IMG/VR virus record: IMGVR_UViG_3300044641_009778 | Direction: 5' to 3' (one strand) | From: an uncultured virus (IMG/VR IMGVR_UViG_3300044641_009778) | Lineage: Duplodnaviria > Heunggongvirae > Uroviricota > Caudoviricetes | Length of the DNA: 60,687 nucleotides | Part shown: piece by piece, positions 3,121 through 60,687 of the stretch | How the letters are laid out: each line of letters starts with the position of its first letter | Numbering within the stretch: the first letter of the stretch is position 1 | Made by a program: the position numbers and the translations under genes | Notes under the pieces: generated by a model | Seen by the model: only the letters and a program-made list of their open reading frames with translations | What the model was told of the DNA's origin: nothing | The model's database searches: none

Positions 3121-3300
3121 TTAATTCTCCGTATCGTCGGAATTGTTTGATCCAAAATTCATGGCGATCTGTTGTTTACGATCATCCAATGCGGCGTTAA
3201 TTTTTGCACTCATTAGATCGTTGAAATTTTGCTGTGCTTCTGCAGGGCGATCGTCTTCGATGTTCTGCAGCATGGTATTAATTAATTCTTCGTGAGTCAT
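3121..3300 (-). CDS. gp67: Prohead core protein, gp67-like (59 aa)
   Basis: Not in the ORF track. Manual translation MTHEELINTMLQNIEDDRPAEAQQNFNDLMSAKINAALDDRKQQIAMNFGSNNSDDTEN; RBS GAGGAG; directly downstream of the portal gene as in T4. Confidence 0.8.
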   Translation of the reverse strand: MTHEELINTMLQNIEDDRPAEAQQNFNDLMSAKINAALDDRKQQIAMNFGSNNSDDTEN

Positions 3301-3301
3301 G

Positions 3302-26323: not shown

Positions 26324-26549
26324 GTTGATGTCCCAGCAATTGTTGCAACAGATGCTTTATTTCCGATAGATCGGTCTCGAAGTTATTTATCTTATTTTCC
26401 AGATGGTCCAATCTTTGTTGTTGCTGCTGTCGCCGGTTCTTAGATTGTACATAATTTTCATAGGCATCGACATTGACATCTACAATGGCATTGGTGCGAG
26501 GATCACGACGTAAATTTTCGTGATCCTCGACTCGTATCAAATTATGCAT
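26307..26549 (-). CDS. Conserved hypothetical coiled-coil protein
   Basis: RVEDHENLRRDPRTNAIV followed by a heptad region; start overlaps the upstream stop. Confidence 0.7.
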   Translation of the reverse strand: MHNLIRVEDHENLRRDPRTNAIVDVNVDAYENYVQSKNRRQQQQQRLDHLENKINNFETDLSEIKHLLQQLLGHQHGHNN

Positions 26550-29500
26550 GAGCAATTACTCGAAGATTTTTAAACTGCGGAACACGTCCACCATTGGTGG
26601 TGCGCATTACAATCTTAACCTGGAATGCCGTAAAGCTCGGTAAATCACGCGGGTTGCCCAAACTATCAAAATCCGTAATGTCTACGGTAAATTCCGTAAA
26701 GTCATTGCGCTTGGTAGTTTTATTGATGGTGGGTAACTGGTTGAATTTAGTCCAGGGGCGCAGAGTGAAGTCCGCAGTAGCCGGTCCGGTCTTGTAATAG
26801 ATATCAAAATCAGCTTCGTGCGGTATCGAGCCCTGGAAAATCATCTTCAACTGGCTGGCCGGATTGGTGAGATTGATTTTCTTACTGCAGTATTTGTTCT
26901 GCACCGATCCAAAACTCGTACCAATTTCATCAACATAGTTAGACAATTGAGTCACAGTAATGTTGAATCCAGACTGAACATTGATGACATTGCCGCTGAG
27001 GAACGCCGTACCGCCGTCGGCACTTATGCCAGTCACCAGGTAACCCGTACTGCTGTTCATGTTATAGCCACTGACCACATCACCGGTAGTTACAATATAA
27101 CTACCCGGCACCAGCGCACTGAAGGTGCCTGCGGTTGCCGATATGCTGCTGGTCACAGAATCAAAACTAATCGCAGTATTATTGGCAGTTATGACCTGTT
27201 TGATCAACACCGGTGCTGAACTGGAATTCAACGCCGGCAGTGTTGAACCTCCGTTATATAATCGTGACACTGCCGTAGGATTATTGACATTGTGTGTGAT
27301 GGTGCGTACATACAACGTGCTTAGATCGATTACTGGACTCACTTGATCTGACGTACTGTTCAACGTAAACTTACCTACATAGCTGTGCTGCCAGGTTTCG
27401 CCGTTGGTATAGGTACGCGATGCTGGATGCTTCAGAGCTTCATTAATGGGGTTCAATATAACCTTGGGTTCGTCGAAAACCGTAGCTACATTGATGTTAC
27501 CACCGTCGTTTTTCACACTATAGTCTGTGCTGTTATTATCAAAGTCATAGGTTATACCCTTCACAGTATCTACGTCAAACGATAATGATGTTTCCTGAAA
27601 GTTCATGACCTTGGCACCTGGCACAGCTACATGATACTGTAGATTGCCATAGCCAATGACATCATTGCCACCGGTGGCGCGTTGTGGCGGAATACTCACC
27701 GATCCCACTCCCAGGTCAGCTACAGTATCCACAAGGTCAATTACATAGCTGTTCAGGGTTACTTCACTGACTTGGAATCGCGCTACGGTATCGTCGTAAT
27801 ACACTTGATCGCGTTCCAGGGTGTTGCCAAAAATCTTGGAAATTTCTACGTTAACACCAGGGAATGTTGCAGTGGTGTTCAATGCAATTGCATTTTGATA
27901 TTGAGTTCTCCAATATTCACTGCCGAATCGTACGAAGTCTCCGTTGCGCAGCCCGTGATTAGGATGCGCTACTCTGACCAAGGTACTGCTGTGAGTAAAC
28001 AAGAAAGGATCTGTGGCCAAATTCTGACCCGGCAAAGGTTCATTGACTACATAGGCTGTGGCTGGGGTGCCAGCATTGAATACAGCGCGATTGACTCTAA
28101 ATTTAAGATCGCTGAACTGATCTTCGGTCCACAACGATCCGTCCTGTGATTTGAACAGGCTACCAAACAAAGTTTGGAAATTGTGCATCTTGTTGGGTTC
28201 GTTGATGTCAAATCCACCGAGAGTGGCGATCCAGACCTTATAATAAACGCTGTCGGATTTCAAACACACCGCATAATATTGATCCGGCAACAGATATACT
28301 GGAATTTCAAAAGTAAATTTAGTAGCTATACGTCCCGATGCATCCACCGTAATTTCTTCGGGATATTTGGTTACTACCGATCCAGGTATAATGTCGCTAC
28401 CGCTGGGACGACCAGTTAAATCGCAGGGGCGAATTTCCAGACGTATAGGCGCACGTTCAGCTTCGGGTTTCTGTGCAAAGAAAATATCCACGTCAGTGAT
28501 GAATGCACCGCTGCCAAAATTATCCGGTAGTTTAAAGCTCTGTGCGATTGGATCATAGGGCACGGCTCGGAAAGTCTTGGTAGAATGGAAACTGTTGGTG
28601 GTGGTAACAGTAAACCCTTCCACAGTATATGTTCCAGTAGCGCGGCTATCCCAGTTGTCCGCAGTATTTGACGAATCATCTACGATCACAATGGGTTTAC
28701 GACCGGTAATAAATCGAGCACCATCTTGATCCGGCAAATCCATCAATATAATTAGATTGCCTTTGTCATCGCTGAAGAACGTTCCAGCTGTGCTGTCGGT
28801 GCAGACATTGGCTGGAGTAATAGACGTTGGATTGCTCAGGGTACGAAGATTGTCGGTACTTACACCAACTCGGAAGGTCGCACCGCTGTAGTTGTAACCT
28901 GCGCCGCCGTTGGTGGTGGCGTTGGCTCGAATAAATTTAGCGCTGAGTTTGCCACGTCCGTTGACGATGTACGCAGTTGCACCTTCTTGATGCACAATGA
29001 TGCCACTACCAACTTCGGTTATCACGCCATTAACAGTTTCGTACATCAAAACCACTGCACCGCGACTCAAGGCCTTGCGATTCTGATCGCGGAAAGTAGT
29101 GCTGGGCATGCGATCGTCGTAGTCTGTGGGATAGTGAGTGCGACGCGAACCGCTGACGGTATAACTCTCAGCACCACTGCGCCAACGAGCATAACCACCC
29201 CATTCGCCCGCAGTACCGGCATTGGGGCGACTAGTAGTAACATCCAGTGTTTCAAGCGCGGTAAACGTCATTTTAACCGCGCCCTGGCAGTAATCACCGA
29301 CATCAAAATCATCGAAGAAAACATAGTGCTCGGCTCGAGGCTTCATGCCCTTCATTTTGAATACAATGGTCTGAGCTCGGCAGAACGGGATGAGTTCACT
29401 GACTGTTTCGCTTCTCAACAATGTATTGGTTATGGTTTCTTCGATGCGATATGGACGCCAGTCGCCAGTGGCGCGATAGTTGTTGATGGCCTGTTGTTGT

Positions 29501-32500
29501 GTGACCGCAGTATTTTCACTGACAATGTTGTTGATGGTTACTGGATTAACATAGATGTCGCTGTCTGGACTAATATCGATGGTCTGCTGGAACAACAGTT
29601 TCAAGAACGGTGTTACCGAAAGCGATGTTGTAGCCAGAAGTTGTTGCACCACTGGAGTAGTGCTATAATCCAAGGTCAATAAATCCCCAGTAACACGATA
29701 GCGCGAGCCCGCACCGGAACGTACTCCGTTGATTGCTGCTATTTCTCCGGTAGTGCTGGTTGGCGAAATAGCGCTAATTTTTTCGCGAAGAACAAACCCG
29801 TCGTCGGTAATGTGCGGATACAGAACCTGATTTTGGAAGTCTACGCTGAATGTTGAACCACTTTGAAAATCTGCGTTGGAAGTATCGCCGAAATTGTCAA
29901 CAAAGAAACCGGTCTTATACCGCTCCAAGGTAGGATCGTTATTGTCACGAATTTGCAGACTGCTGGCATTGGTTTCCAACAGACTTAGCGCAGTAGTAAT
30001 TTCGAGATTTTCCAGACGTTTGTCAATGCCGCCGATGTCCTTCATGGTGTAGCGACGATTATCGATTTTTTTAGTAGTGATCGATGGCCAGCCGGCAGTA
30101 CGTGTATAGGGTTCTAGAGTAAGATCATAGAGCTGCACACAATTTTCATTGTTGTATTCCGGCGTAGCAGGATTCAATGAACTAGCCGATGCCACGGTAT
30201 AGAACGTGCCGTTTTGATCCAACAATACTTTGTTTTTACGGCCCAGATAATAGGTTATATTGGTCAAAAATCCTGTGCCAAATCGCGGTGGTTCAAAATC
30301 AGCGGAATCCACACTTGGGCGGAAATCCAAACAATCTTTTAAATTAACGCCATTGAAGGTTGGAGCTTGTTCATATGGCACAAAGTCATTGTCATAGCTG
30401 TTGTAGGCAAAGTAGTCGCCCGCACTATGACTGAAGTAATCGTAGAATACTCGCACACTGCCGGTGGGCACTGGACGACCAGACTTCAATTTTAATGAGC
30501 TGTAGTCATAGTAGGCCGATCGTTGTCCATTGTCAAAATCATAGTTTTCAGTGATGTCCTGCACATCGGCCGCAGTATAGGTTGCGGGCCAAGACGCTTG
30601 AAAACTGCTAAGCATCAGTACTTTATTGAGACGATACACATCGGTGTTGTTGAGCGTGAGCGTAGATCGCTGTGCGGTTGAACTGGTTAAGAAGGTTGTG
30701 TTGGCATCCAACACCAGAGTTTTGGTGCGTCGGCCGCCGACCAATTCTGCGTTGGGATCGTTGGCGGTTCTTCGCACTGGATATAATAAGGTATAGTTAC
30801 CGGCACTGACTAGATTTTCTGCGAGATTCACAGTAACTACACCACCACCGCCGGCGGTCACGCTAACTACTCGTATTGGGTTGGCCAAATTAGCTTCATT
30901 GCGGCGCGCCAATAGGAAGTAATTGGGATCGTTGGTGGCCAGTTGGTCTGTATTATTGCCGCTGGTACCGGCCGACAATGTAAACGTAAAGGAACTTGTT
31001 CCAGCGGCCGCAGTAAATAGTACAGTGGTATATACTTCATATACATTGTTACGCATGCTCCGCACAGCGTCGGCTGCTCGATATACTAAACTATCGTTGT
31101 CGGGATCAATAATACTGTTGTTGATGCGAATAATGGGATACTGTGCAGTAGTGCTGCCCACAGTTGTGCTATCTGGGCGAATCGCAAATCCTACGCTGTT
31201 GCTGCTGATATAGGTCAACACCATGCGTTGGTCATTGATGCTGATGAGATCACCGGCTCGAGCTTCTAAACTTAAACGCGCATCTGTGGTGCCAGTGAGT
31301 CTGATGGCAGCGTGTGCTGGTATGGTGGTGGCGTTGCCGGTAAAATCTGTGATGGTGAACAAACCAGTAAGTCGTTTTGCATTGATACCGAGCGCATAAT
31401 TTGAATATACTTCGGTGGCAAATTTCGCTGTTTGTCCTTGATACAGAATATCGGGCTGTAAAAGACCGCTGCCTACCACCGTGCTGTTGGCTGACCCCAC
31501 ACCAATCACACCAATGGTTGCCGTAGTAATCACACTGGTGAGGAGCATGCGCGTATCACTTAATATTTGTGTTACTGTGCCGGTGTTGTTGGCGCCGATG
31601 CGCACTGTATCGCCGGTGCGCAGTTCACTTAAAAATTTGGTCTGCAATCCGCCAGGAGTAGATACACCCACCACAGTCTGCGGAGGTACAACAACAAACA
31701 TCGACGCAGCAGTAGCAATCATGGATGTTATGCTGCTGCCTACCACTGTCATGAGGGTTGGGCTGTTGATGGTCAGCACAGTATATCGATTGGCATTGCT
31801 GGTTGAATTAAATGTAACAACGTCGCCTACGTTCAATCCAGAAAAATTGGCATTTGCGCCCAGGGTACCGCTGGATACACTAATTATTGTACCTGCGGGC
31901 AATGTAACACCGGCGGTAGCTCCGCCGCTGTGATTTATTGCGCCAGGATATTGACACAATACGTTGCTGCCTCCGATGGTTCCGCCAACATATTTTGCGG
32001 CGCCGCTGAGATTATAGACCGAAGTACGCACAGCCGGAGTATCGTCAAACTGCACAATACCATCTACATCGCGATCGAATATTCGACCCGGATCCATGCG
32101 AACATCGTACAAACCAAGTTTTAATCCTCCGCTGGCATCATAGTCCATGAACTTGATGCGTCCCTGACCTACGCGTCGACCATAACCAAATCTGTATTGA
32201 TTGCTGAGATCAAATATCGGACGATCAAACATATAAACCAAACCACCGGTTTTAGTGTCGGGCAATCCATAGGTACGTGTGCGATCAACGTAGATGTAGT
32301 TGCCTTCCGGAGTTTGCAGTGTAATATTATTGCTGCTGGCTGTGGCTCGAGCCTTGGGTAGAGTGACAAAGCTATTGACCTCATTGTCAATTTCATAGCC
32401 TTTGACATAGGCTTTGCCGGGCCCAAAACTAAGCACTACATCACTGGAGCTGGCCAGAGCCTGAATGCTGGCATTGGTTGAACCTGGGTCATAGAGTCCG

Positions 32501-33669
32501 CGATTGCTGGTCGGATTAGGATTGAAACGCCAGATTGGTCCCGTGCCGGCGCCGTCGGTAACGCTGGAAGTTTGATCAAAACTAGCAAAGGATGTGGGCT
32601 CGGTACCTCCGCTGGTGCCGCTGCGAATACATTCATAGAAACGCCCCGTAGTGCTGGCCTGCACATAGTCGCCTACGGCATAATAAGTACTGGCTTTCCA
32701 AGCGCTGCGATCGTTTTTACGTGCTTCTCGAACATCGAATTTAAAATCATTGACAACATAGTTGCCGCTTTCGTCATAGGTGCGACGTGCCAGAGTATCT
32801 TCTAGGACATTGTAGAGAGCGCGATTCTGTAGTTTTAATACTACGCCATCGAGTATGCGAATCAGCTCGACAAACCCTTCGGGGCTTTCATCCAACGGCA
32901 AAGTAACAAATTCCGTGGAAATTCTATAGCGATGTGCGCCAGGTGCGGCAAAATTCAGACTGCCCGAGGCATTGTCGGTCAGACTGTTGTCTTCGCTTTC
33001 TGTGATGACTTCTTCGGTGTATTGAATACCAACCTTGGCAGAAATTGTCAACGGATCAGTAACATATTTTTCTACTACTGCGCTGGCAGCCGGAACGCTG
33101 ACAAAACAACCTGCAAGATAGTACACACCCTGTTGTATAGAGGCCACAGCGCTGAAGTCGTCAGTAACTGCGCTGGTGGCTGCGCTTACAATGACATTGA
33201 GTGCAGGTTCGTTGACTATGTAGAGTACCTGATCCGCAGTAAATTTAAATCCGGTGATTTGATTGGCACCGCCGCTGACCTGTTGATTGCCGCTGTTGTA
33301 GGTTACAATCAAGGTATCGGGATCGATGCCGTCGGTGGGTATGGCCTTGACAACAAAGGCTCGCAGACCAGTGCCATCGATTTCTGCGGCAATTTCCTTG
33401 CCTTCGAGATAGCTAAGTTCCTGCGCACCAAGATTAGTGCTGGCCAACTTAATATAACGAGCGCGTGGATGATAGGTCACCTGACCCGGAATAACCACGC
33501 TGCCTTCTTTGAATACATGGTTACCAAATTTGGTGATTTGATCCTGCAGTATGCTTTGCAGCTGATTCATTTCTCGAGCCTGCACAGCCACGCCGGGGCG
33601 GAACAGCACACGATAGAACTGTTTTAGTTCGTCAAAATCATCAAAATATGGTGATTGATTGAAATCCAT
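26542..33669 (-). CDS. Large virion structural protein, VrlC-like / DUF4815 type (2375 aa)
   Basis: N-terminus DFNQSPYFDDFDELKQFYRVLFRPGVAVQAREMNQLQSILQ; LARRTYDESGNY; NRRYTMKDIG; KTGFFVDNF; DPIAQSF; C-terminal FQVKIVM...KNLRVIA. Confidence 0.85.
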   Translation of the reverse strand: MDFNQSPYFDDFDELKQFYRVLFRPGVAVQAREMNQLQSILQDQITKFGNHVFKEGSVVIPGQVTYHPRARYIKLASTNLGAQELSYLEGKEIAAEIDGTGLRAFVVKAIPTDGIDPDTLIVTYNSGNQQVSGGANQITGFKFTADQVLYIVNEPALNVIVSAATSAVTDDFSAVASIQQGVYYLAGCFVSVPAASAVVEKYVTDPLTISAKVGIQYTEEVITESEDNSLTDNASGSLNFAAPGAHRYRISTEFVTLPLDESPEGFVELIRILDGVVLKLQNRALYNVLEDTLARRTYDESGNYVVNDFKFDVREARKNDRSAWKASTYYAVGDYVQASTTGRFYECIRSGTSGGTEPTSFASFDQTSSVTDGAGTGPIWRFNPNPTSNRGLYDPGSTNASIQALASSSDVVLSFGPGKAYVKGYEIDNEVNSFVTLPKARATASSNNITLQTPEGNYIYVDRTRTYGLPDTKTGGLVYMFDRPIFDLSNQYRFGYGRRVGQGRIKFMDYDASGGLKLGLYDVRMDPGRIFDRDVDGIVQFDDTPAVRTSVYNLSGAAKYVGGTIGGSNVLCQYPGAINHSGGATAGVTLPAGTIISVSSGTLGANANFSGLNVGDVVTFNSTSNANRYTVLTINSPTLMTVVGSSITSMIATAASMFVVVPPQTVVGVSTPGGLQTKFLSELRTGDTVRIGANNTGTVTQILSDTRMLLTSVITTATIGVIGVGSANSTVVGSGLLQPDILYQGQTAKFATEVYSNYALGINAKRLTGLFTITDFTGNATTIPAHAAIRLTGTTDARLSLEARAGDLISINDQRMVLTYISSNSVGFAIRPDSTTVGSTTAQYPIIRINNSIIDPDNDSLVYRAADAVRSMRNNVYEVYTTVLFTAAAGTSSFTFTLSAGTSGNNTDQLATNDPNYFLLARRNEANLANPIRVVSVTAGGGGVVTVNLAENLVSAGNYTLLYPVRRTANDPNAELVGGRRTKTLVLDANTTFLTSSTAQRSTLTLNNTDVYRLNKVLMLSSFQASWPATYTAADVQDITENYDFDNGQRSAYYDYSSLKLKSGRPVPTGSVRVFYDYFSHSAGDYFAYNSYDNDFVPYEQAPTFNGVNLKDCLDFRPSVDSADFEPPRFGTGFLTNITYYLGRKNKVLLDQNGTFYTVASASSLNPATPEYNNENCVQLYDLTLEPYTRTAGWPSITTKKIDNRRYTMKDIGGIDKRLENLEITTALSLLETNASSLQIRDNNDPTLERYKTGFFVDNFGDTSNADFQSGSTFSVDFQNQVLYPHITDDGFVLREKISAISPTSTTGEIAAINGVRSGAGSRYRVTGDLLTLDYSTTPVVQQLLATTSLSVTPFLKLLFQQTIDISPDSDIYVNPVTINNIVSENTAVTQQQAINNYRATGDWRPYRIEETITNTLLRSETVSELIPFCRAQTIVFKMKGMKPRAEHYVFFDDFDVGDYCQGAVKMTFTALETLDVTTSRPNAGTAGEWGGYARWRSGAESYTVSGSRRTHYPTDYDDRMPSTTFRDQNRKALSRGAVVLMYETVNGVITEVGSGIIVHQEGATAYIVNGRGKLSAKFIRANATTNGGAGYNYSGATFRVGVSTDNLRTLSNPTSITPANVCTDSTAGTFFSDDKGNLIILMDLPDQDGARFITGRKPIVIVDDSSNTADNWDSRATGTYTVEGFTVTTTNSFHSTKTFRAVPYDPIAQSFKLPDNFGSGAFITDVDIFFAQKPEAERAPIRLEIRPCDLTGRPSGSDIIPGSVVTKYPEEITVDASGRIATKFTFEIPVYLLPDQYYAVCLKSDSVYYKVWIATLGGFDINEPNKMHNFQTLFGSLFKSQDGSLWTEDQFSDLKFRVNRAVFNAGTPATAYVVNEPLPGQNLATDPFLFTHSSTLVRVAHPNHGLRNGDFVRFGSEYWRTQYQNAIALNTTATFPGVNVEISKIFGNTLERDQVYYDDTVARFQVSEVTLNSYVIDLVDTVADLGVGSVSIPPQRATGGNDVIGYGNLQYHVAVPGAKVMNFQETSLSFDVDTVKGITYDFDNNSTDYSVKNDGGNINVATVFDEPKVILNPINEALKHPASRTYTNGETWQHSYVGKFTLNSTSDQVSPVIDLSTLYVRTITHNVNNPTAVSRLYNGGSTLPALNSSSAPVLIKQVITANNTAISFDSVTSSISATAGTFSALVPGSYIVTTGDVVSGYNMNSSTGYLVTGISADGGTAFLSGNVINVQSGFNITVTQLSNYVDEIGTSFGSVQNKYCSKKINLTNPASQLKMIFQGSIPHEADFDIYYKTGPATADFTLRPWTKFNQLPTINKTTKRNDFTEFTVDITDFDSLGNPRDLPSFTAFQVKIVMRTTNGGRVPQFKNLRVIAHA

Positions 33670-42700: not shown

Positions 42701-42787
42701 AGTCCCCTCATAGAAGGTCAACGTACTAACAAACTGTTGCCGTTCGTAGACGGTATCAAACGTCGGTGGAACTAAAAATATCGCCAT
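39752..42787 (-). CDS. Glycine-rich adhesin / fibre-like protein (1011 aa)
   Basis: One Gly-rich domain plus two GWDG...ATITV..GVYV.S...L.N.G.I.G(R/K)GG domains resembling T2-type gp38 adhesins. Confidence 0.7.
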   Translation of the reverse strand: MAIFLVPPTFDTVYERQQFVSTLTFYEGTTAVNNISSITVDYQLGGAGDYLSLPSGVSSQLITIGTGAAAYKEIRLQGRWPQYTLNSNWVTQPSSSNTSTASFANYESVVSDGTPYFSARAYNADTSLSTTVLIRVRASRWTVALGNFEEIVYPTQALENNWNRKRNQVIPFVQGGDIDAETFRFPGGSLGGAVGQDLPEPGASTGLSQVPVTVIYDTGSGAYNVPLTVSSITVRLFGGGGRGGRGYALTNYSASGGGGGSGGFVEFTTSVTAGQTFLWNVGIGGTESNKGIGGTTNFGDNYAFGGQPGADGLLSQGSVTVAGGAGGVPNGLSGSPGSVSQGSGAIADQVGGDGADCIDSNIGQGGDGGDRTAPTGVTGLPGTGFAAGGGGAGTQRGTVQPWAGGDGQPGRIEINYLGSRFVFVDNITVNVADYNVRTQALALGWDGATPLDATITVFAGVYVYSTIVGGPGFSYDNLPVNSVVKLVNNGNIIGRGGDGFANVLGTVTAPSPGSPAILLNSTPLFITNNGTIAGGGGGGGGGSGGGGGGAGGGNGGNLKVSGENQSFGAPGLGGGPGQAGTTGTFSLSNRSMGPSVQWFVAAGPGGGGGRILPGTGGAGGVGNSGNNTMSGGGGGAGGGGGGYYFTRQTVDGGLLYHGNGGAGGASTNNGGNGTITLSGGTGGDIGGGGGGGGWGAAGGTTVVPAFAGGIGGKAIETRGFDVVFSSVGTIYGAISGTKVSDSSFSTVITSNRLQLNLRTFALSAGWDGTATASFTIANGVYVWSNTTSVAGLVVDGSWPGGVRLNNYGYIMGKGGFPTRNGGPALSITRNLILFNSGYITGGGGGGTGLNPFSGGGGAGGGEASQGTPGGPGQPAVDTFGGELNLVGRAGGAGGGGGSVSRVTNPFAFFPAPGGAGGRVIPGVGGFGGEGNNGIGLDGGSANNGPSTRIFRGAPIGPDFNWSTGGGGWGAAAFTDIGGGNAPPAGLGGRGIQLNGNTVTYLKVGTIWGAVS

Positions 42788-45700
42788 TAGGTGTAGCCCT
42801 GAGCCAACTGTACAAGGAATGGTCTATAAAGTTTGCCGCCCACCACAGTACCAACCTTGGGACCAACTTTGCCCTTTTGGAACACGCCTTCGGGCGGTCG
42901 ATTACCATCGAGACTGAAGCTGATGTGAATCCAGAAACGCTGCACGCCCTGTAGTATTTCGGTTTCCAACAACAGTTGATCGAAGGCTACATTGTCGCGA
43001 ATCCAGCGCGCAATTTCATAGTAATCCTTGTTGGGGCGTTTGGGGAAATGAATGTCTACGGCCTGGCCCGTTCCGTGCTGACCTTCGTGTCCGTCGAGAT
43101 AGCCCACCAATATTTTTACATCGGGATAGCGATCCGCAATGGGGTCCATGGTGTTCACTGCCAGAGCCTTGATGTTGGTGGCGATCTGTGCGCTGCTCAA
43201 TCGACGACCGTCGCCGCCAGTGCTGGAATTTGAACCACCCTGATAGTTACCACGTCGTCCCGAACGTCCCGCAATATTGTCGGAAGTTAAACTACCATCG
43301 ATGATGAGGTTTCTTGAAAATCCACCCAACAGGCCTGCGGTCTGCGCTGCCAGAGCAGCCGAACTGCCGCCGTAGGAATCTACGATGTTGTTGTACACAA
43401 GATCTGAAATATAGCTACCGGCAGCATAACCAATGAGTCGTCGATTGAGATCGCGCCGGCCCGCAATTTCATTTCTCACAACCTGACCCAATGTACGACC
43501 CAGCACAGTTATGCCCGATGCCTGTGCATCTGCTGCCAAACCATAGGCATAATTTAAAGTTCGCGTAATTGCTCGATCCACTACTGAGCCCAATGCAGCA
43601 CCGCCGAGGTTGCGCAGCAGTCGTTTGTTGGCTTCGTCGTCGCCGCGCAGAGCATTGCTGGCCAACACTACGCCGACCTGGCCCAAATAACGCTGAGTAC
43701 CGGTGCTTAGTATGCCGGTGTTCACACTATAGGTGTAGCCCGCACCCAAGACATTGAGGCCGACCTGCTGAGCAAAGTTCTTGCTGTTGATGTTGGGGTT
43801 GCTGGCAGCTGCGGATACTGCGGCTGCGCCTACGCCGATCCAACCCAGATTGCGACGCTGGTCGGCAGTTAGATTGGGGTTGCCCTTGCTGTAGGTATCG
43901 AGACCAATGTCCACAAAGGCCGGCAGACTCTTGGCCAACACAGTAAATCCCAGACCCAGCGGATAACCTTTTTCTCCGCGCAGTCGTGTTGTCGCAAGAT
44001 TGGCACCCAAGGTACCGATGATTTTCTGTGTATTGGAGGCGCCGGCAGTGGACAGCAGCGCTCTGCTGCCGGCCAGTACTGCGCCAAGACCGAGCTTCTC
44101 ACCGATGCTAAGGTTGCGATCACCGGCCGGCGTCAAGCCCACTACTACGGTGGTGGTTAAAAATGCCAGCTGACTTTTAGTTAAGAAATTACCGATTTTC
44201 CATTTTTTACTGACCTTGGCAGTTTCCTTGATGCCATCCTTCATGTTGGTGAGATCGCTGGCATCCACGCCTCTGCCCTGAATGGCAAAGGGTTGTTTGG
44301 GATCAAATTCTTTGAAACCCTGACTACGAATATCGTTGTCTGCGGCCTGATCGGCGAAAGTTTTGCCTTTGCCCGCACTACCGCCACGTATGTTGCGTGC
44401 ATCGATTTCTACGTCGGCAACCGCGTCGAGATTTTCGGACTGACCGTGTGCACTGGCGGCATCCGCCAGATCACCGACCTTTTGAAATACATAGTCAATG
44501 CCGTTTTCTATGAGCTGTTCAATGGTGGGTATGGATGGTTTCAGCCCAGTCAAAGGCGACACAGCCGGCGGAAACGCAGCAGCATTGGCCAATCCTATGC
44601 CCATCTGCCAGTACACCAGACCAGCATCCGCAGCAATTTGATTGGGCGAATATAAATTAATGCCCGCTATGGCGGTGTTGCTGATCTGACCAAGGCAATA
44701 GTTTGATACATCAAGAGCCACAAATAAATCATAGCTGCCGAGTCCAGTAAGTCTATAATCTCCAAAAGCATAGAAAGTTATGTTGCCGGGTTTGAGCAAC
44801 GGAGGGTTGCCGGTGAGGTCGGTTACTGCGTCGTCGGCATCGGGCACTACGTTGACGTCCAAGGTAGGCACGGCTTCGAACACCATGTTTTTAGCGCGAA
44901 CCTTGAAGTCGCCGTTGGCGTTCACCGTAAAGTCACCGCCGGTGTTGATGTTACAGCTGTTGTGTACATTGATGGTGGCATTGCCCTTGACCTGTACGTT
45001 GTAGGCGCTCTGCACCAATACGTTGTGTGCACCCTCTACCGTAAGATCGTATTGACCCCGCACATATACACGTTTATTGGCCAGTATGACGTGTTGATCG
45101 TCGCCCTCGGTGCGATACTGTACGGTGCCGTCGGGATGAATTTCTATGAAGGTTCCCGACGGGTGATATAAATGAAACCGTTCCCATTCTGGTGTATCGT
45201 CGAATTCAACAACATGACCGGCTTCGGTGGCAAATACTTTATTATATGGATAACGCGCATTGTAGCCCGTGGCAATTTGCGCCCAACGATTGGGCAAAAT
45301 AAACTCTGCTAGTTGTGCCTCGGCCAGGCCACTACCGATCAATCCAACTGTTGCTACCGGAATTTCGTCTATGGCTGTATCTACTTTATGCTGCACAATG
45401 GTGCTGACAATGTCTTGACCAGTGGCTAGTTTGTTGGTGTCGGGATGATCGGCATAGTCACAGGTTGGATACACGCTGTTGGGATCGTTAAAGCCTGGCT
45501 CGTTGCCCACGCGCGGATCATTCAAAGGACCCGCAGGATCGGCATTGGGCGGCGCCTGAACTCCGTTGTTGGGTGCGCGTTCTAGCACGTTGCGACCCGT
45601 CGGTGTGGTGTAGCTCAATCGGCCCTTGAGATAGTCATCGACTCGGTAGTATTGGCGACCACCTTCGTTCATGGTGGCATAACCAATGGCATAGTAAGCC

Positions 45701-47253
45701 AATGGAGTAGATTTATTGGCATCAGTCGGTCCGGGTTTGAGACCGCCTTTGTTGGAATTAAGCCAGGCCGAAGTACCGGGTGCGCCGGCGAGGTGCGCTG
45801 CCTGCAGTATGCCGGCTGCCTGTCGCTTGTCCATTGTGGGTGTTATGTGGCCGCGCTGCAACAAAAAATTATAGTTGTCTTCGAGAAAAGCAAACATAAT
45901 TTGTTCTTGCAGCGGTCCATTGGCCTTGAAATCTTCGGCGCTCTTGAGTCCATTTTTGCTGGCCCATACCGAAGGAGTGGTAGCCACGACATATTCGCTG
46001 TAGACCTTGCCTCGAGCTCCGTTCAACGGCGGCTGCGCCCATTTTACGTAGCCCAACTGAGTCAGAGCCTGTCCGCCAAATTGATACTTTCCTATGAAGT
46101 ATTGAAGATTTTGCGAGGCATAGTTTTGTTGGCGACCCGGCAGACTATCTGACTCCGGAAATCCTATGCCGTTCATCAGCAGCTGTACATCGCTTTTGTT
46201 TAACGGCGGCAGGTCGCGCAGCACATAGGGCGAAGGTATTATGTTGTTGGAAAGGTTGCCGCTGTCGCGTCTCTGCGGAGCATCCACTCCGGCGCCCTGA
46301 CGATCAAGTATTTTGATTACGTCGCGTGCTACTGCATTGTAGTCCTTGGGATGTATGCCGTCGGCGCTAGCATAGTTTAACGTATCAATGACTTGATCGC
46401 CATATTCGGCCGCTACTTGGCGTATGGCTTCGGCCGCAATTCGATTACGAGACAACAGCCAAACAACAGCAGCACCGGCATTGACTACTGTGCGAATTTG
46501 TTTTGCATTGGCCTTTACTGCGTCAATGCGATTCTTGGCTGCGGATAATCCAGTCGGAGTATCGGCGACAACATCGGCAAGATCATTGCCGCCACCACTG
46601 AGCACCGCAAATCTGGGATTGTGAGCGTTGGTCTGACGAGTTATGTCCTGTAAAATTCTTTTAGTGTTGATACCAACAGTAGCTACTACAGTAACACCGG
46701 CCTTGAGATTGGACAACGCAGCGCCCGTGCCGGCGGCCAGACTATCGCCCACTACCGTAATCACAGGACCAGTATTGTTGGTGGGTACAGTTACTACGGA
46801 ATTGCTGCTGTTCTGAATAATTTTAATCGGACGACCGGCTTCATCGGTCATGGGGTTACCACTGACGTCGCGTTTGGTGTCTGGTGCGTATAGATCTTCC
46901 TGCGCATTGTTGGCAGTACAGGCTTCGGTAGGCAACCTAAAGCCGGCCATGGTGCCCATTATCACTGGTTGTTGGCAATCCTTGCCGTCGGCGAAAAATC
47001 CCATGACCCAGGTTCCGGTCACCGGACCTACCGGTGAACCACCCACACCGCTGGTGGCTGCGCTGGTTACGGGCTGCAGTGGTATGGCCCAGGGCAGGTC
47101 GCGCGTTGGCAGCAAATCCTTGTTGTCGATGTGATAGCCAAAAATACGTACTCGGCAACGACCCAAGAACAGCGGATCTTCGCGGTCTTCGACCACACCC
47201 ATCCACCAGAAAAATCCGTCTCGGCCAAAAATGTTGTTAATTGGTGCGCTCAT
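42787..47253 (-). CDS. gp5: Baseplate hub / tail spike gp5 with additional enzymatic domains (1488 aa)
   Basis: OB-fold FFWWMGVVEDREDPLFLGRCRVRIFGYH...LPWAIPLQP...GTWVMGFFADG..CQQPVIMG; beta-helix entry YPYNKVFATEAGHVVEFDDTP..ERFHLYHPSGTFIEIHPDG. Confidence 0.93.
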   Translation of the reverse strand: MSAPINNIFGRDGFFWWMGVVEDREDPLFLGRCRVRIFGYHIDNKDLLPTRDLPWAIPLQPVTSAATSGVGGSPVGPVTGTWVMGFFADGKDCQQPVIMGTMAGFRLPTEACTANNAQEDLYAPDTKRDVSGNPMTDEAGRPIKIIQNSSNSVVTVPTNNTGPVITVVGDSLAAGTGAALSNLKAGVTVVATVGINTKRILQDITRQTNAHNPRFAVLSGGGNDLADVVADTPTGLSAAKNRIDAVKANAKQIRTVVNAGAAVVWLLSRNRIAAEAIRQVAAEYGDQVIDTLNYASADGIHPKDYNAVARDVIKILDRQGAGVDAPQRRDSGNLSNNIIPSPYVLRDLPPLNKSDVQLLMNGIGFPESDSLPGRQQNYASQNLQYFIGKYQFGGQALTQLGYVKWAQPPLNGARGKVYSEYVVATTPSVWASKNGLKSAEDFKANGPLQEQIMFAFLEDNYNFLLQRGHITPTMDKRQAAGILQAAHLAGAPGTSAWLNSNKGGLKPGPTDANKSTPLAYYAIGYATMNEGGRQYYRVDDYLKGRLSYTTPTGRNVLERAPNNGVQAPPNADPAGPLNDPRVGNEPGFNDPNSVYPTCDYADHPDTNKLATGQDIVSTIVQHKVDTAIDEIPVATVGLIGSGLAEAQLAEFILPNRWAQIATGYNARYPYNKVFATEAGHVVEFDDTPEWERFHLYHPSGTFIEIHPDGTVQYRTEGDDQHVILANKRVYVRGQYDLTVEGAHNVLVQSAYNVQVKGNATINVHNSCNINTGGDFTVNANGDFKVRAKNMVFEAVPTLDVNVVPDADDAVTDLTGNPPLLKPGNITFYAFGDYRLTGLGSYDLFVALDVSNYCLGQISNTAIAGINLYSPNQIAADAGLVYWQMGIGLANAAAFPPAVSPLTGLKPSIPTIEQLIENGIDYVFQKVGDLADAASAHGQSENLDAVADVEIDARNIRGGSAGKGKTFADQAADNDIRSQGFKEFDPKQPFAIQGRGVDASDLTNMKDGIKETAKVSKKWKIGNFLTKSQLAFLTTTVVVGLTPAGDRNLSIGEKLGLGAVLAGSRALLSTAGASNTQKIIGTLGANLATTRLRGEKGYPLGLGFTVLAKSLPAFVDIGLDTYSKGNPNLTADQRRNLGWIGVGAAAVSAAASNPNINSKNFAQQVGLNVLGAGYTYSVNTGILSTGTQRYLGQVGVVLASNALRGDDEANKRLLRNLGGAALGSVVDRAITRTLNYAYGLAADAQASGITVLGRTLGQVVRNEIAGRRDLNRRLIGYAAGSYISDLVYNNIVDSYGGSSAALAAQTAGLLGGFSRNLIIDGSLTSDNIAGRSGRRGNYQGGSNSSTGGDGRRLSSAQIATNIKALAVNTMDPIADRYPDVKILVGYLDGHEGQHGTGQAVDIHFPKRPNKDYYEIARWIRDNVAFDQLLLETEILQGVQRFWIHISFSLDGNRPPEGVFQKGKVGPKVGTVVGGKLYRPFLVQLAQGYT

Positions 47254-56661: not shown

Positions 56662-57226
56662 TTTCTTTGATTTTTAGGAATGGACTGTATTTACGAATCA
56701 ATCTACGAAGGTCCGGCCACATCAGAGTATCGCTGCAGACCTGATCAACTGCATCGGTCCAATGTAAAACTTTGTCCAAAATAACCAGAGTTTCAATTTG
56801 AATTGAACGACGCAGATAGCAGCGCACAATCAAAGGATGCTGCCCACCTACGCTGATCAATGCATCCGCAATGTTATTTATTCCGGCTTCGTCGCATTCG
56901 GCCTGCAGAGCATGAAGATCCTGAGTAAATCTGTAGCGGAGACTTTCGCGTCGAGCCAGCCACTGCCGATAACATTCCGCAGCTTCGGCATCGTAAACAC
57001 CGCCCCAGCGATTGCCGTTGACAAAATTGGCTACAAAGAAGTCACAGATTTCTGCGTCTCGATACTGCGTAACCAGCTTTTTAAACACGCCTTGCTTTTC
57101 AGCAAATGTACGTCGACTGGCTCGAATGCGTCCCCGCATTTTAATGGCATCATAATCATCGGTTTGAAAATGATTGCGCAGAGCCAGGTACATTTTATAG
57201 GCTTCGTACTCTGTCATGTTCATCAT
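56618..57226 (-). CDS. gp59: Helicase loader
   Basis: EAYKMYLALRNHF...YD, FFVANF, HPLI, IETLVILD and KYSPFL motifs; gp33-gp59-gp32 synteny. Confidence 0.92.
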   Translation of the reverse strand: MMNMTEYEAYKMYLALRNHFQTDDYDAIKMRGRIRASRRTFAEKQGVFKKLVTQYRDAEICDFFVANFVNGNRWGGVYDAEAAECYRQWLARRESLRYRFTQDLHALQAECDEAGINNIADALISVGGQHPLIVRCYLRRSIQIETLVILDKVLHWTDAVDQVCSDTLMWPDLRRLIRKYSPFLKIKENEYRSIIREFTGPD

Positions 57227-57573
57227 AGCGGCAACCGACCACTGCGTTTCATCATATTGGCTTCCTCGGCTTCGATGCGAATTTTGTCTTTGAGACTGCG
57301 ATTAATCAGCGGTGCCACGACTTCAATGTCGATGTCTTTTTCTGCACAGTAATTGATCACAATCTCCATATAAGGCACTCCAGTTTCAACATGCTGTCGC
57401 TCCACGAACAAGCTAAACTCGTTGGCCGAACTAAACTCCCGACTAATGATGAACTGCGTAGTAATTTCCGGACCATTGTCGGGCACCAACCGCTCGTCTA
57501 CAATCTCACCTTTTTTATTTGTGAGCTGTAGACCGAGAATTTCTCTGGTGGCAATGCGTTCGTTGATGGGCAT
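57223..57573 (-). CDS. gp33: Late transcription coactivator
   Basis: FSLFVE...YMEIVINYCAEKDIDIEVVAPLINRSLKDKIRIEAEEANMM motif. Confidence 0.9.
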   Translation of the reverse strand: MPINERIATREILGLQLTNKKGEIVDERLVPDNGPEITTQFIISREFSSANEFSLFVERQHVETGVPYMEIVINYCAEKDIDIEVVAPLINRSLKDKIRIEAEEANMMKRSGRLPL

Positions 57574-57574
57574 G

Positions 57575-58492
57575 TTACACCGCCACTGGAGTTACATCAT
57601 TGGCTGGTTGTGGCTGGCGCTGCAGTTCCGGTATCGGACCCTGAGCAAAGGTAGCCACGGCTGCTAAATCGCAGACATACTCATAGGTTCCGACGTGTAC
57701 GGTGCGAGTCCAGGGAGCCAACCAAACCTTGCCGCCGAGTTGACGCCAGCGTTTGCAGAAGGTAAAATCCTCGCTGGTATAGGCTCGAGTTTCTGGATCG
57801 ATGCTGACATCAAAATAGGCATGCGCCTTGCGATGCGGATCCGTGATGCGAGTCATGGTCTTGGGATCCATGGTCTCTGAACCGCCGCTGATGATTTCAA
57901 TCTCCGGCAATTCTGCGGCCATCTTTTCAAATACTTCGCGTTTAACCAACATCAGGCCTGTGGCGATGCTTTCTACTTCTACGGGCTCATTGATGTTGAA
58001 GCTCATGGTTTCTCCCACGGGCTTGAAGGTGGATTCGGCCACTACAGCGTTGATGGAATGACCAGGAATACCAGGATTCATGTTCACTACATTCTTTACC
58101 ACTTCCCAGTTGATTTTTTTCTTGGCGTACTGACCGCCGATGATGTCCTTGTCCTGCTGGATCATGCGCATCACATCGTCGGGATCAAAGCCCAGGTCGG
58201 CGTCGAGGAACAGCAGGTGTGTGGCGTTGCTTTTGAGAAAGCCTTCCACTAGAATATTGCGAGCCTTGGTAATCAAACTTTCATTGGCAGCGATTTCAAA
58301 CATCGCTGGAATGCCGGCCTGGCCCAGTCGGTTCAGCAGGTTGATCAAACTGATCATATACATGTAGTTACACTGGCCGCCGAACATCGGTGTAGCAATA
58401 AAAACGCTTTTCTGCTTCGGTGGCTGTGGTTTGTTGATGAACAGCGGATTGATTTGACGATTAGGGTTGCGCTGCGGCGCCTTGAGTTTCAT
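57575..58492 (-). CDS. Putative GT-A fold glycosyltransferase
   Basis: VFIATP, ESLITKARN, HLLFLDAD (DxD), TGLMLVKREVFE, SEDFTFC and HVG motifs. Confidence 0.75.
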   Translation of the reverse strand: MKLKAPQRNPNRQINPLFINKPQPPKQKSVFIATPMFGGQCNYMYMISLINLLNRLGQAGIPAMFEIAANESLITKARNILVEGFLKSNATHLLFLDADLGFDPDDVMRMIQQDKDIIGGQYAKKKINWEVVKNVVNMNPGIPGHSINAVVAESTFKPVGETMSFNINEPVEVESIATGLMLVKREVFEKMAAELPEIEIISGGSETMDPKTMTRITDPHRKAHAYFDVSIDPETRAYTSEDFTFCKRWRQLGGKVWLAPWTRTVHVGTYEYVCDLAAVATFAQGPIPELQRQPQPANDVTPVAV

Positions 58493-58495
58493 GAT

Positions 58496-58696
58496 TTACC
58501 ATTCTCCATTGTCGATGTCGACATTTAGTTTAAAAAGCAAGCAATTCAATCGAACAGTGGGGTAGTCTTTGCGACAGCCCCAACTGTCTTCATAGTATAT
58601 ATCTAGTTTCCACCACCGCCAGTGTGCAGGATTTAGTATTATTATAAATTCGGCGGTGGTGTACGTCAATAGCTTTCGCCAATTTTTCATCTTCAA
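58496..58696 (-). CDS. Hypothetical protein
   Basis: 66-aa ORF filling the gap between neighbouring genes with overlapping start/stop. Confidence 0.55.
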   Translation of the reverse strand: MKMKNWRKLLTYTTAEFIIILNPAHWRWWKLDIYYEDSWGCRKDYPTVRLNCLLFKLNVDIDNGEW

Positions 58697-59250
58697 TAAA
58701 ATACGTGATTTCCAATTTTAGCCTTGGGTGGCTTTTTCCAGCCTGGATTAACATAGGTGGCATGGAAGTATTTTGCGCCGCGCAGTTCTGGTAACCGCAC
58801 GCCGTCCAACATGACTCGGCGCGCTACACGCAGGCTTTCATCATAGAGATGTGGTGCTCGGATGCGTTTGTTGCCTTCACAAACCCAGCTGAACTGACAC
58901 ACAGTTACGCCTTCGTAGTTGGTCTTTTGATGTACAACGCCGCAGACCGAAGCAGGAAATTGACCGCTGTGAACTCGGTTCATGGTGACCTGAGCTACGG
59001 CAATTTTACCTTTGATGGGCTCGCTGGCACTTTCAAAGTATACATTGCGAGCCAGGCAGGTAATTTCTCGATTAAGTTTGACCTCGGCCAGCTTCTTTTG
59101 ATGTCGCTGTTCCGCGATGCGTTGACTTTCCTGCTGCTGCAGCTGTCGAGCCTCGGCCTGGGTATGATACAATACATTGATGCCGGCGGCAAACACCGAC
59201 AATAGAATGGTTGCTACTAAAAAACGTCGAACAAAGTGTCTGTTCAGCAT
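58693..59250 (-). CDS. Cell wall hydrolase, SleB/Hydrolase_2 family, with N-terminal membrane anchor
   Basis: CLARNVYFES..EP..GKIAVAQVTMNRV...FP.SVCGVVHQ...CQFSW...YFHATYVNPGW...IGNHVFY; hydrophobic residues ~10-28. Confidence 0.92.
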   Translation of the reverse strand: MLNRHFVRRFLVATILLSVFAAGINVLYHTQAEARQLQQQESQRIAEQRHQKKLAEVKLNREITCLARNVYFESASEPIKGKIAVAQVTMNRVHSGQFPASVCGVVHQKTNYEGVTVCQFSWVCEGNKRIRAPHLYDESLRVARRVMLDGVRLPELRGAKYFHATYVNPGWKKPPKAKIGNHVFY

Positions 59251-59269
59251 GAGTTCTCCTTGTTAAGAA

Positions 59270-59287
59270 GGTACGCCGCGGCGTACC
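59270..59287 (-). terminator. GC-rich palindromic hairpin, possible terminator upstream of the hydrolase gene
   Basis: Perfect 18-bp palindrome GGTACGCCGCGGCGTACC followed by TTCTT on the minus strand. Confidence 0.6.
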
Positions 59288-59297
59288 GTTCCCCCAA

Positions 59298-59567
59298 TCA
59301 GGCAGATTTTTTGCTTACTTTATCTGAGGGTGTGTTGGAAACAAAACCATTGAGGCTTTGAGCCTTGGTAATGACTTCGTTTTCTGTGGGGTAGGGTGGC
59401 AGTGTTGGATGTTCAGGTATTGCTTGTCCGTGTATTTTGGCGGACTCTACCTTAACTTGCCAGTCTTGACTAATTTGATCACGCTTACCATAGTACTCTT
59501 CGGTAAGCATTTCCTTCGCCATTTTTAGAAGTTCAAGGCGAATCTCGAACGGTGTCAGATTTGACAT
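59298..59567 (-). CDS. Conserved phage hypothetical protein
   Basis: TPFEIRLELLKMAKEML...YPTENEVITKAQSLNGFVS; RBS AAAGG. Confidence 0.8.
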   Translation of the reverse strand: MSNLTPFEIRLELLKMAKEMLTEEYYGKRDQISQDWQVKVESAKIHGQAIPEHPTLPPYPTENEVITKAQSLNGFVSNTPSDKVSKKSA

Positions 59568-59657
59568 GGTATTACCTTTCTGTGTTGTGAGTGATGTAGC
59601 TGGTTTTAAAACAGGCCCAGCAACTGCTATTATTATATATCTATACTAGAAAGTCAA

Positions 59658-59732
59658 TCAACGATTGGCAATGTACATGGTGATTTCGAAACCAAAACGC
59701 ATGTCTTGAGCTGAGGGTGTGGTCCACTTCAT
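59658..59732 (-). CDS. pqqA: Pyrroloquinoline quinone precursor peptide (24 aa)
   Basis: Not in the ORF track. MKWTTPSAQDMRFGFEITMYIANR*, with the W-x-x-P leader and G-F-E-x-T-M-Y (ExxxY) core of PqqA; strong RBS AGGAG 6 nt upstream. Confidence 0.95.
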   Translation of the reverse strand: MKWTTPSAQDMRFGFEITMYIANR

Positions 59733-59832
59733 AGTCTTCTCCTAGGTTAATTAGGCATACGCCTGCGTATATCTATACAGGCATGTGCTGAATTTACATC
59801 ATGAAAATCATTATAAACAACTAAAGGCGTAT

Positions 59833-60423
59833 TTAAATTTTCGAAATTACTGGAAATCTAATGTCAAACGTTATATTAATTCTATGTCTGTCACTGCGAT
59901 TGGTTTCAGTTTCATGTGGTAGCCAAGCCGGCCAAATAAACAAATCACCGTCATTGGGTGAAACTGCATATGGACCAACGAACGGTGCACGAGAATTACA
60001 ACCTTCGGTCATAGCCGGGTTGCTAAAAATAATATCACCAGTGCCAGTTCCTTGCAGATAATAAACTGCTACGTATTGATATAGTTTATGATCATGCAAT
60101 TCGATTTTGCTACCAATTTGGTTAATGTTAGTACAATAACTTATGTGTGCGTCTTCAAAAAATCGACACTTGTCTTTGTAAATGGGATCATGTTGTTGAT
60201 AATAGGACACAGCTTCATTGACTGTTTGTTTGATTTCTGCTACTAACCATTCAAGATTACTGTAATTAAAATAACTACGCCAACACCCACGATAACTAAA
60301 TCCTATATTATCATCATTGTTGTTATACGCAGACCAAGCTTCATCAATCAACTGTTGCCGCTGTTCTGGAGTACCTACATTTTTTATAAACACATCGGCC
60401 TGTAGGATTGGAAGTCTTTTCAT
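59833..60423 (-). CDS. Putative 2OG-Fe(II) oxygenase
   Basis: HDH...AVYYL...GDIIF.NP...P.DGDLFIWPAWLPH...N...RINITFD double-stranded beta-helix motifs. Confidence 0.85.
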   Translation of the reverse strand: MKRLPILQADVFIKNVGTPEQRQQLIDEAWSAYNNNDDNIGFSYRGCWRSYFNYSNLEWLVAEIKQTVNEAVSYYQQHDPIYKDKCRFFEDAHISYCTNINQIGSKIELHDHKLYQYVAVYYLQGTGTGDIIFSNPAMTEGCNSRAPFVGPYAVSPNDGDLFIWPAWLPHETETNRSDRHRINITFDIRFPVISKI

Positions 60424-60446
60424 TACTAAAATATAAACCGTTTCTG

Positions 60447-60616
60447 AAAAATGCCGGGTATTCTGTTACGAGGAACCCGGCGAACCCTAAGCAGCGATTA
60501 GGCTGCTAATGCATAACTTTCGTCATTTGCATTTATGGTTTTGCTTGATTTACGGTCATCGCCTACCGTGCTGTCCACTTGCCTACTCCTGACCCTGTCG
60601 AAACCATGTCTGGCCC
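60447..60616 (-). ncRNA. ssrA: tmRNA, coding piece of a probable two-piece (permuted) gene
   Basis: 5' end GGGCCAGACATGGTTTCGACAGGG; pk1-like region; ATAAAT then resume codon GCA; tag ANDESYALAA* at 60530-60498; stop-codon hairpin; final GCCGGGT/ACCCGGC stem followed by a T run. Confidence 0.92.
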
Positions 60617-60687
60617 ATCAGAAGTGTCCTGCTGTTCACAGGTCGGGAATTCCAGTCCTCGGAGTCTTGTTAAACTCCTACATACCA

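Follow-up and report, generated by a model that had tools for sequence, protein, structure and literature searches.

PqqA is the substrate from which the cofactor PQQ is made, one peptide being used per cofactor, as is generally known and as set out in papers cited in two earlier studies (PMC7678222, PMC9851590). A viral PqqA has been described from the Lake Baikal viromes, where VP_266 carries it together with a viral methanol dehydrogenase and an enhancement of methanol oxidation was proposed (Coutinho et al. 2020, Microbiome, PMC7678222); in the account given there, VP_266 was assigned to methylotroph hosts. Viral PqqA was hence published as an auxiliary metabolic gene in 2020, and the novelty implied by a first, sequence-only reading of the locus described below does not hold. 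On the bacterial side, methylotrophs keep several pqqA copies, and Hyphomicrobium denitrificans is described as having five, three of them set apart, with one of those three among the most expressed; two of its copies, one of which is stand-alone, rise with PQQ synthesis (PMC9851590).

The DNA analyzed here, which we call the window, is a 60,687-nt stretch of an uncultured virus (IMG/VR record IMGVR_UViG_3300044641_009778). A pqqA coding sequence of 24 codons and a stop lies on its minus strand at 59658..59732, with the translation MKWTTPSAQDMRFGFEITMYIANR* and with Glu16 and Tyr20 placed within FEITMY; on the plus strand, 59658-59732 holds no ORF. The sequence-only reading had located this ORF exactly, giving no strand, and the strong ribosome-binding site that it reported is borne out by a Shine-Dalgarno AGGAG, read from the sequence 6 nt 5' of the ATG (59739..59743, minus). 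It had also named the peptide PqqA and suggested a profile search, in which both curated models score above their cut-offs: Pfam PF08042 gives 39.5 bits (cut-off 21.1, E 5.4e-10, profile positions 1-19 of 19) and the NCBIfam equivalog TIGR02107 gives 38.4 bits (cut-off 20, positions 1-21 of 21). The 24-residue product, whose length falls within the roughly 20-40 residues expected of PqqA, contains the Glu-X3-Tyr cross-linking pair (F-E16-I-T-M-Y20), and the leader residues W3, P6 and R12 are all present; the leader half of PqqA (W-x-x-P ... R) is the part thought to be recognized by PqqD. With both models passed at about twice their cut-offs, the profile scores rule out a chance ORF at 59658-59732, and on the evidence of its sequence the window ORF is a genuine, phage-maintained, stand-alone pqqA. 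Its GC3 of 0.54 falls among the window genes (0.27-0.61) and among bacterial pqqA copies (0.42-0.92) alike, and since these ranges overlap, composition separates neither a phage from a bacterial origin nor an old phage gene from a recent one.

Several candidate signals surround the gene. The 11-nt direct repeat GTATAGATATA has just two exact copies in the window, and they bracket pqqA on the minus strand: the upstream one (59768..59778) lies 36 nt before the ATG and contains TATAGATA, and the downstream one (59636..59646) lies 12 nt past the stop of pqqA and 71 nt ahead of where orf89, the next gene, starts. TATAGATA, 38 nt before the ATG, is one base from the T4 late-promoter word TATAAATA, and either TATAAATA or ATAAATA stands 27-61 nt ahead of several structural gene starts in the window. 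Similar ATAGATA words occur on both sides of pqqA in a related IMG/VR contig, L081, and the upstream repeat copy is predicted to fold into a local stem-loop. A late-promoter role for the repeat may be hypothesized. A sigma-70-like promoter match, by consensus only (TTTAAA, 16 nt, TATAAT; 10/12), is found at 59810..59837 on the minus strand, between the upstream oxygenase gene and pqqA. By its predicted RNA fold, the pqqA region does not stand out from shuffled sequences (z = -0.79).

PHROG searches with the 49 ORFs of the window mark it as a T4-like myovirus. The named head genes comprise the major head protein, scaffold, prohead protease, portal and both terminase subunits; the named tail genes comprise tail tube, sheath, baseplate wedge and hub proteins and a gp5-like hub-lysozyme; and a DNA end protector, gp32, gp59 and the gp33 late co-activator were also named. 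The window portal protein is at most about 55-56% identical to that of any isolate, its best matches being Pelagibacter phage Mosig, cyanophages and the OM43 phage Melnitz, and DNA of the window was found in lake or freshwater metagenomes, in 24 runs that belong to 13 studies, a count in which the source itself may be included; no RNA run is among the 24, a blank that says nothing either way about expression. The window phage is a freshwater T4-like, Kyanoviridae-like myovirus. Two very large structural ORFs lie on its minus strand, at 18073-25980 (2635 residues) and 26542-33669 (2375 residues, DUF4815), and the gp5-like hub with lysozyme occupies 42787-47253 on the same strand (1488 residues).

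Around pqqA all genes run on the minus strand, in the order tmRNA, 2OG-Fe(II) oxygenase, pqqA, orf89, SleB-type hydrolase, and then gp33, gp59 and gp32. The tmRNA (60498..60687) is of the two-piece, permuted type, carries the tag frame ANDESYALAA and is cut by the window end. The upstream neighbor of pqqA is the oxygenase (59833..60423; phrog_81, PF13759), and the downstream neighbor is orf89 (59298..59567), whose 89-residue product matches no family and is 71% identical to its homolog in L081. The SleB-type cell-wall hydrolase (58693..59250; PF07486) is likely the endolysin, and 19 viral loci have a homolog of it in the neighborhood of pqqA, namely 18 among the 80 loci with flanking sequence and one short locus. 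Permuted tmRNAs also occur in the related viral contigs L081 (3014-3385), L059 (2931-3220) and L089 (1-103), at 0.1-0.7 kb from pqqA.

The claim that the gene is phage-encoded is upheld both by the phage genes on its two sides, with gp32, gp59, gp33 and endolysin on one and the oxygenase and tmRNA on the other, and by synteny. The tmRNA on the upstream side of pqqA also sits in related viral contigs, and pqqA occupies the same slot in the window and in the IMG/VR contigs L081 (exonuclease, tmRNA, homing endonuclease, pqqA, orf89 homolog, endolysin, gp33, gp59) and L059 (exonuclease, tmRNA, pqqA, endolysin, gp33, gp59, gp32). No bacterial genes flanking pqqA were found by PHROG searches with the window ORFs or by tblastn with PqqB-E. 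The junctions were examined with contigs from four further runs, each belonging to a different study, aligned to window positions 57000-60687; these contigs are short, and the parts that they leave uncovered carry no meaning. In run X4, a 1239-nt contig from a relative of about 92% identity spans endolysin, orf89, pqqA and the spacer to 59813, and runs X2 and X5 hold identical pieces bridging orf89 and pqqA. Given the slot shared with L081 and L059, the bridging contigs from other studies and the lack of bacterial flanking genes, assembly chimerism, which had been named beforehand as a result that would overturn the reading, is rejected. In two contigs of other lake runs, the start region of orf89 is fused directly to the tmRNA (59561-60592), with neither pqqA nor the oxygenase; the matching side of these joints is only 26 bases long, and they are a weak hint of relatives without this cassette. 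In L059, positions 3288-3359 encode a different PqqA type in the same pre-endolysin slot as 59658-59732 in the window, which suggests allele replacement or host tracking.

The gene stands alone. PqqB, PqqC, PqqD and PqqE sequences came from translation of L003, a pqqBCDE-bearing contig filed as phage. Used as tblastn queries at E<=1e-3, with viral flanks of up to 4 kb on each side, they gave 0 matches in the window, in 80 flanked IMG/VR loci and at the Melnitz and P19250A loci, and the PHROG annotations of the 49 window ORFs include no pqqB, C, D or E. The absence of pqqB-E from the window that had been noted at first sight is thus confirmed by search with the bacterial proteins. As a positive control, the same queries found pqqB-E directly after pqqA, at 34-66% identity, in 71 of 80 flanked bacterial loci, against 0/80 flanked viral loci; the nine other bacterial loci comprise two that lack downstream room, six second copies in Limnobacter and one in Trinickia. 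A wider scan for pqq genes and PQQ-dependent dehydrogenases, also proposed at the outset, was run with curated models on five related viral records (one of 356 kb and 96% complete): PqqC, PqqD and the PQQ-dependent alcohol/methanol dehydrogenase (TIGR03075) were not found in them, and PqqE gave only two weak radical-SAM matches, at 22 and 17 bits where the cut-off is 381. These five records are mostly fragments and only two are near the window, L081 and, by peptide only, L043, so that the scan does not prove absence from the full genome of the window phage. The position directly upstream of pqqBCDE, which is usual and non-defining for pqqA, is not the one seen in the window; stand-alone extra copies also occur in bacteria, in Limnobacter and, as described, in Hyphomicrobium (PMC9851590), and the lack of adjacent pqqBCDE therefore leaves PqqA membership intact. 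The second pqqA copies of Limnobacter (L135, L145, L161, L167, L185 and L195) are of a distinct type, with peptides beginning MSWTTPQFV... or MTWTTPAFV..., and have no pqqB-E within their flanks; in Limnobacter MED105, the Pfam model finds two pqqA copies.

The survey of phage databases that the sequence-only reading had called for found ten GenBank phage records and, in each IMG/VR scan, at least 120 loci. A tblastn search of 50,697 GenBank phage records with the peptide matched 12, of which ten are phages: Melnitz (four records), P19250A, Venkman, MEP301, MEP401, MEP402 and one uncultured Caudoviricetes. None of these ten records annotates pqqA; five have no feature under the match, and the other five have a 'hypothetical protein'. 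In one of the Melnitz records (MZ577097.1 76100-76205, corresponding to L001 4967-5072) the pqqA frame is unannotated and an antisense 'hypothetical protein' is drawn over it. The remaining two matches were set aside: 'Acinetobacter phage MD-2021a' CAKLQF020000010.1 (L003), which carries fur, ppk and pqqBCDE beside an unannotated pqqA, looks like a bacterial chromosome contig, and the second record of that name, CAKLQH020000055.1, was excluded by its name.

Two pattern scans of IMG/VR extend this view. The first used the back-translated core G-F-E-[IV]-T-M-Y and gave at least 120 loci, of which all 120 listed hold complete PqqA-like ORFs of 23-25 residues. The second fixed the leader instead (W-T-[KTN]-P, four free codons, M-R-F-G-F) and gave at least 120 copies; Glu, Tyr and the exact length are kept in 120/120 of the viral copies listed. 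Since both scans fixed parts of the peptide, degenerate copies cannot be counted by them. When 80 flanked loci, the window, Melnitz and P19250A were grouped by context (at least three shared ORFs), 27 groups resulted, the multi-member ones having 32 (including P19250A), 11, 7, 4 and 3 members; the group of three consists of the window, L059 and L081. PHROG searches on 13 representative loci place pqqA in replication modules, beside the major head protein and near the terminase, and in the 356-kb phage it lies near another 2OG oxygenase. As a predicted gene, stand-alone pqqA is widespread in phages. The large viral contigs L061 (166 kb), L006 and L043 form a group in which an array of 18-21 tRNA genes ends 58-81 nt away from pqqA; in Melnitz the gene is flanked by tRNA-Arg and tRNA-Leu. 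The pqqA-bearing T4-like viral contig L082 holds a match to the ROSE_3 RNA thermometer (2198-2262; 52.5 bits, cut-off 43) directly before a phage Hsp20 gene.

Conservation was assessed in 120 sequences, the window and 119 viral copies, one copy containing N having been left out, and the selection test was limited to the 15 codons that the core pattern leaves unfixed. Among these positions, Trp, Pro and Arg are invariant in 120/120 sequences. Over 108 distinct DNA versions the mean pN/pS is 0.34, a rough value given 15 codons and synonymous sites that are saturated at a pS of 0.60. By these measures pqqA turns up repeatedly in separate phage genomes and is under purifying selection there.

The sequence-only reading had judged the peptide betaproteobacterial and its host possibly methylotrophic, and these two suggestions fared differently. 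The nearest peptides are viral, with 23/24 identity in L069 and in L061 with L006. Two viral records whose PqqA peptide is nearly identical to it are 148-166 kb long and rated 43-48% complete; these phages, linked to the window by the peptide alone, may greatly exceed the usual size of T4-like phages. A scan of bacteria, one genome per species, with M-R-F-G-F-E-I-T-M-Y-I-A-N gave at least 120 matches. The titled genera among the matches listed are Rhodoferax, Polaromonas, Limnohabitans, Hydrogenophaga, Albidiferax, Limnobacter and Thauera, with Rhodocyclaceae, Sideroxydans and similar bacteria also present. One truncated entry left out, the bacterial peptides among the matches listed are identical to that of the window at 18-22 of 24 positions, and none of them is identical to it throughout; the closest types listed come from Comamonadaceae, Limnobacter, Thauera and Rhodocyclaceae genomes. 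In one bacterial order, 3 of 401 genomes have the window-type motif, which does not narrow down the host; beyond the matches listed, Methylophilaceae may carry the allele as well. The betaproteobacterial look of the peptide is thus confirmed by its identity to Burkholderiales-type copies among the matches listed, and the predicted peptide type matches the Burkholderiales (betaproteobacteria). The tmRNA of L081 also passes the betaproteobacterial tmRNA model; that of Melnitz is described as alphaproteobacterial-like (PMC9004378). A betaproteobacterial host for the window phage is supported, as a prediction, by the nearest bacterial peptide types and by the L081 tmRNA. A methylotrophic host is not established: the closest types listed belong to bacteria that are not classic methylotrophs, and the peptide of phages grown on cultured methylotrophs is of another type. 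P19250A has the peptide MWTTPAATEMRFGFEVTMYVMNK, which is the dominant type among the IMG/VR matches listed, and Melnitz has MKWTKPVAQEMRFGFEVTMYIMTR.

We propose that the window carries a functional, phage-maintained, stand-alone pqqA that acts as an auxiliary metabolic gene, supplying a consumed precursor to the PQQ enzymes of the host, and we give this reading a probability of roughly 0.62. Its observed basis is family membership, phage location, the lack of pqqB-E nearby, recurrence across lineages and conservation; from these we infer expression of pqqA, processing of the peptide by host enzymes and a benefit to the phage. Upon infection, the phage genome would serve as template for the 24-residue peptide, and PqqD and PqqE of a host assumed to have pqqB-E would bind it and cross-link Glu16 to Tyr20, after which PqqF, PqqB and PqqC would process the cross-linked peptide into PQQ. 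Host transcription likely collapses after infection, and since one peptide is destroyed per PQQ, the phage would be replacing the sole consumable part of the pathway. The stable host enzymes would be reused, with the phage contributing the peptide that is consumed, and the periplasmic PQQ-dependent dehydrogenases, and hence respiration, would be kept supplied. PQQ is itself a reusable cofactor, which counts against a need for fresh synthesis within one infection cycle.

Other readings of the same gene have to be weighed against supply of the precursor. The peptide might be made into a product other than PQQ, or might be a phage-specific small peptide with a signaling, tmRNA-, tRNA- or lysis-linked role. 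RNA genes do adjoin pqqA, in the form of the permuted tmRNA in the window, L081, L059 and L089 and of the tRNA arrays in L006, L043 and L061, and the recurrence of a SleB-type hydrolase homolog nearby in 19 viral loci fits a lysis link. Nevertheless, the peptide satisfies an equivalog-level PqqA model, no co-located modifying enzyme was found in the window, the flanked loci or the related records, and the neighborhoods vary by lineage among replication, capsid and terminase modules, so that there is no fixed partner gene; we regard such a role as improbable. A second proposal, raised already in the sequence-only reading, is that the peptide is a decoy or inhibitor, which would occupy host PqqD and PqqE without yielding PQQ and thereby stop synthesis or divert the radical-SAM enzyme. 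In its favor, the leader half that PqqD is thought to recognize is conserved in all copies examined. Against it, a dead-end peptide should have lost Glu or Tyr in at least some lineages, whereas both residues and the length are kept in 120/120 copies listed, a result of the scan that fixed the leader only. Moreover, the viral peptides resemble ordinary bacterial PqqA, that of the window being identical to the bacterial copies listed at 18-22 of 24 positions. The decoy proposal is weakened accordingly, and we would assign it a slim chance. That pqqA is a non-functional passenger, captured recently with host DNA or joined by assembly, is very improbable, for although the gene is tiny and sits in a variable slot (a homing endonuclease or another ORF separates tmRNA and pqqA in relatives) and the two weak joints of 26 bases hint at relatives without pqqA and the oxygenase, it keeps its slot in L081 and L059, its junctions are bridged by contigs from other studies, its key residues are invariant over 120 sequences despite a pS of 0.60, and bacterial flanking genes are absent.

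Supply of a consumed precursor by the phage may have a wider bearing. It is possible, if rather doubtful, that stand-alone pqqA is a general 'consumable-part' auxiliary gene of many unrelated phage lineages, with the allele tracking recognition by host PqqD and PqqE. The Comamonadaceae/Limnobacter/Rhodocyclaceae-type allele of the window argues that such a gene would not be restricted to methylotroph phages, and allele tracking is suggested by the L059 type, which differs from that of the window and L081 in the same slot. If this generalization were true, a 75-bp pqqA could serve as a host marker, and PQQ supply would limit phage yield in lakes. If host PQQ synthesis does draw on the phage peptide, phages that infect abundant betaproteobacteria of fresh and marine waters would adjust alcohol and methanol oxidation through a 75-bp gene. 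Standard ORF callers overlook pqqA, and surveys of viral metabolic genes under-count genes of peptide size.

The window peptide shares its length, its leader and its Glu-X3-Tyr core with bacterial PqqA (PF08042, TIGR02107). The cyanophage psbA gene, encoding the D1 protein, is an auxiliary metabolic gene whose expression and function in infection have been shown experimentally. Its likeness to pqqA would be one of logic only, the phage carrying the fastest-consumed part while host machinery does the rest; protein and pathway are unrelated, and the function of psbA is experimental while pqqA is known here from sequence. Like VP_266, the window is a freshwater viral contig with a PQQ precursor gene read as an auxiliary metabolic gene; unlike VP_266, as compared by its published description, no methanol dehydrogenase (TIGR03075) appears in the five related viral records, and in contrast to the methylotroph hosts assigned there, the window peptide matches Burkholderiales families outside the classic methylotrophs (PMC7678222). 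The window also resembles the cultured methylophages Melnitz, P19250A, Venkman, MEP301, MEP401 and MEP402, which have an unannotated pqqA of 22-24 codons; in Melnitz and P19250A, as here, the locus lacks pqqB-E, and Melnitz is likewise T4-like, of the Kyanoviridae class, with a two-piece tmRNA. The window peptide is 75% identical to that of Melnitz and 64-68% identical to those of the other methylophages, and the Melnitz gene, between tRNA genes upstream of gp5, differs in placement from the window pqqA in its tmRNA neighborhood. In the text of the Melnitz paper, PQQ occurs solely as a medium additive, the published OM43 medium having 1 nM of it (PMC9004378), and a term search of the MEP401/402 paper finds no mention of PQQ (PMC10580990), although the supplements of these papers or the P19250A paper may name the gene. 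Going by these predictions, phage pqqA is much commoner and less annotated than the literature suggests. Viral pqqA as a kind is already in print, and the window contributes a further example and added breadth, with no new principle: what is added is a T4-like lineage from fresh water whose allele is of the Burkholderiales type.
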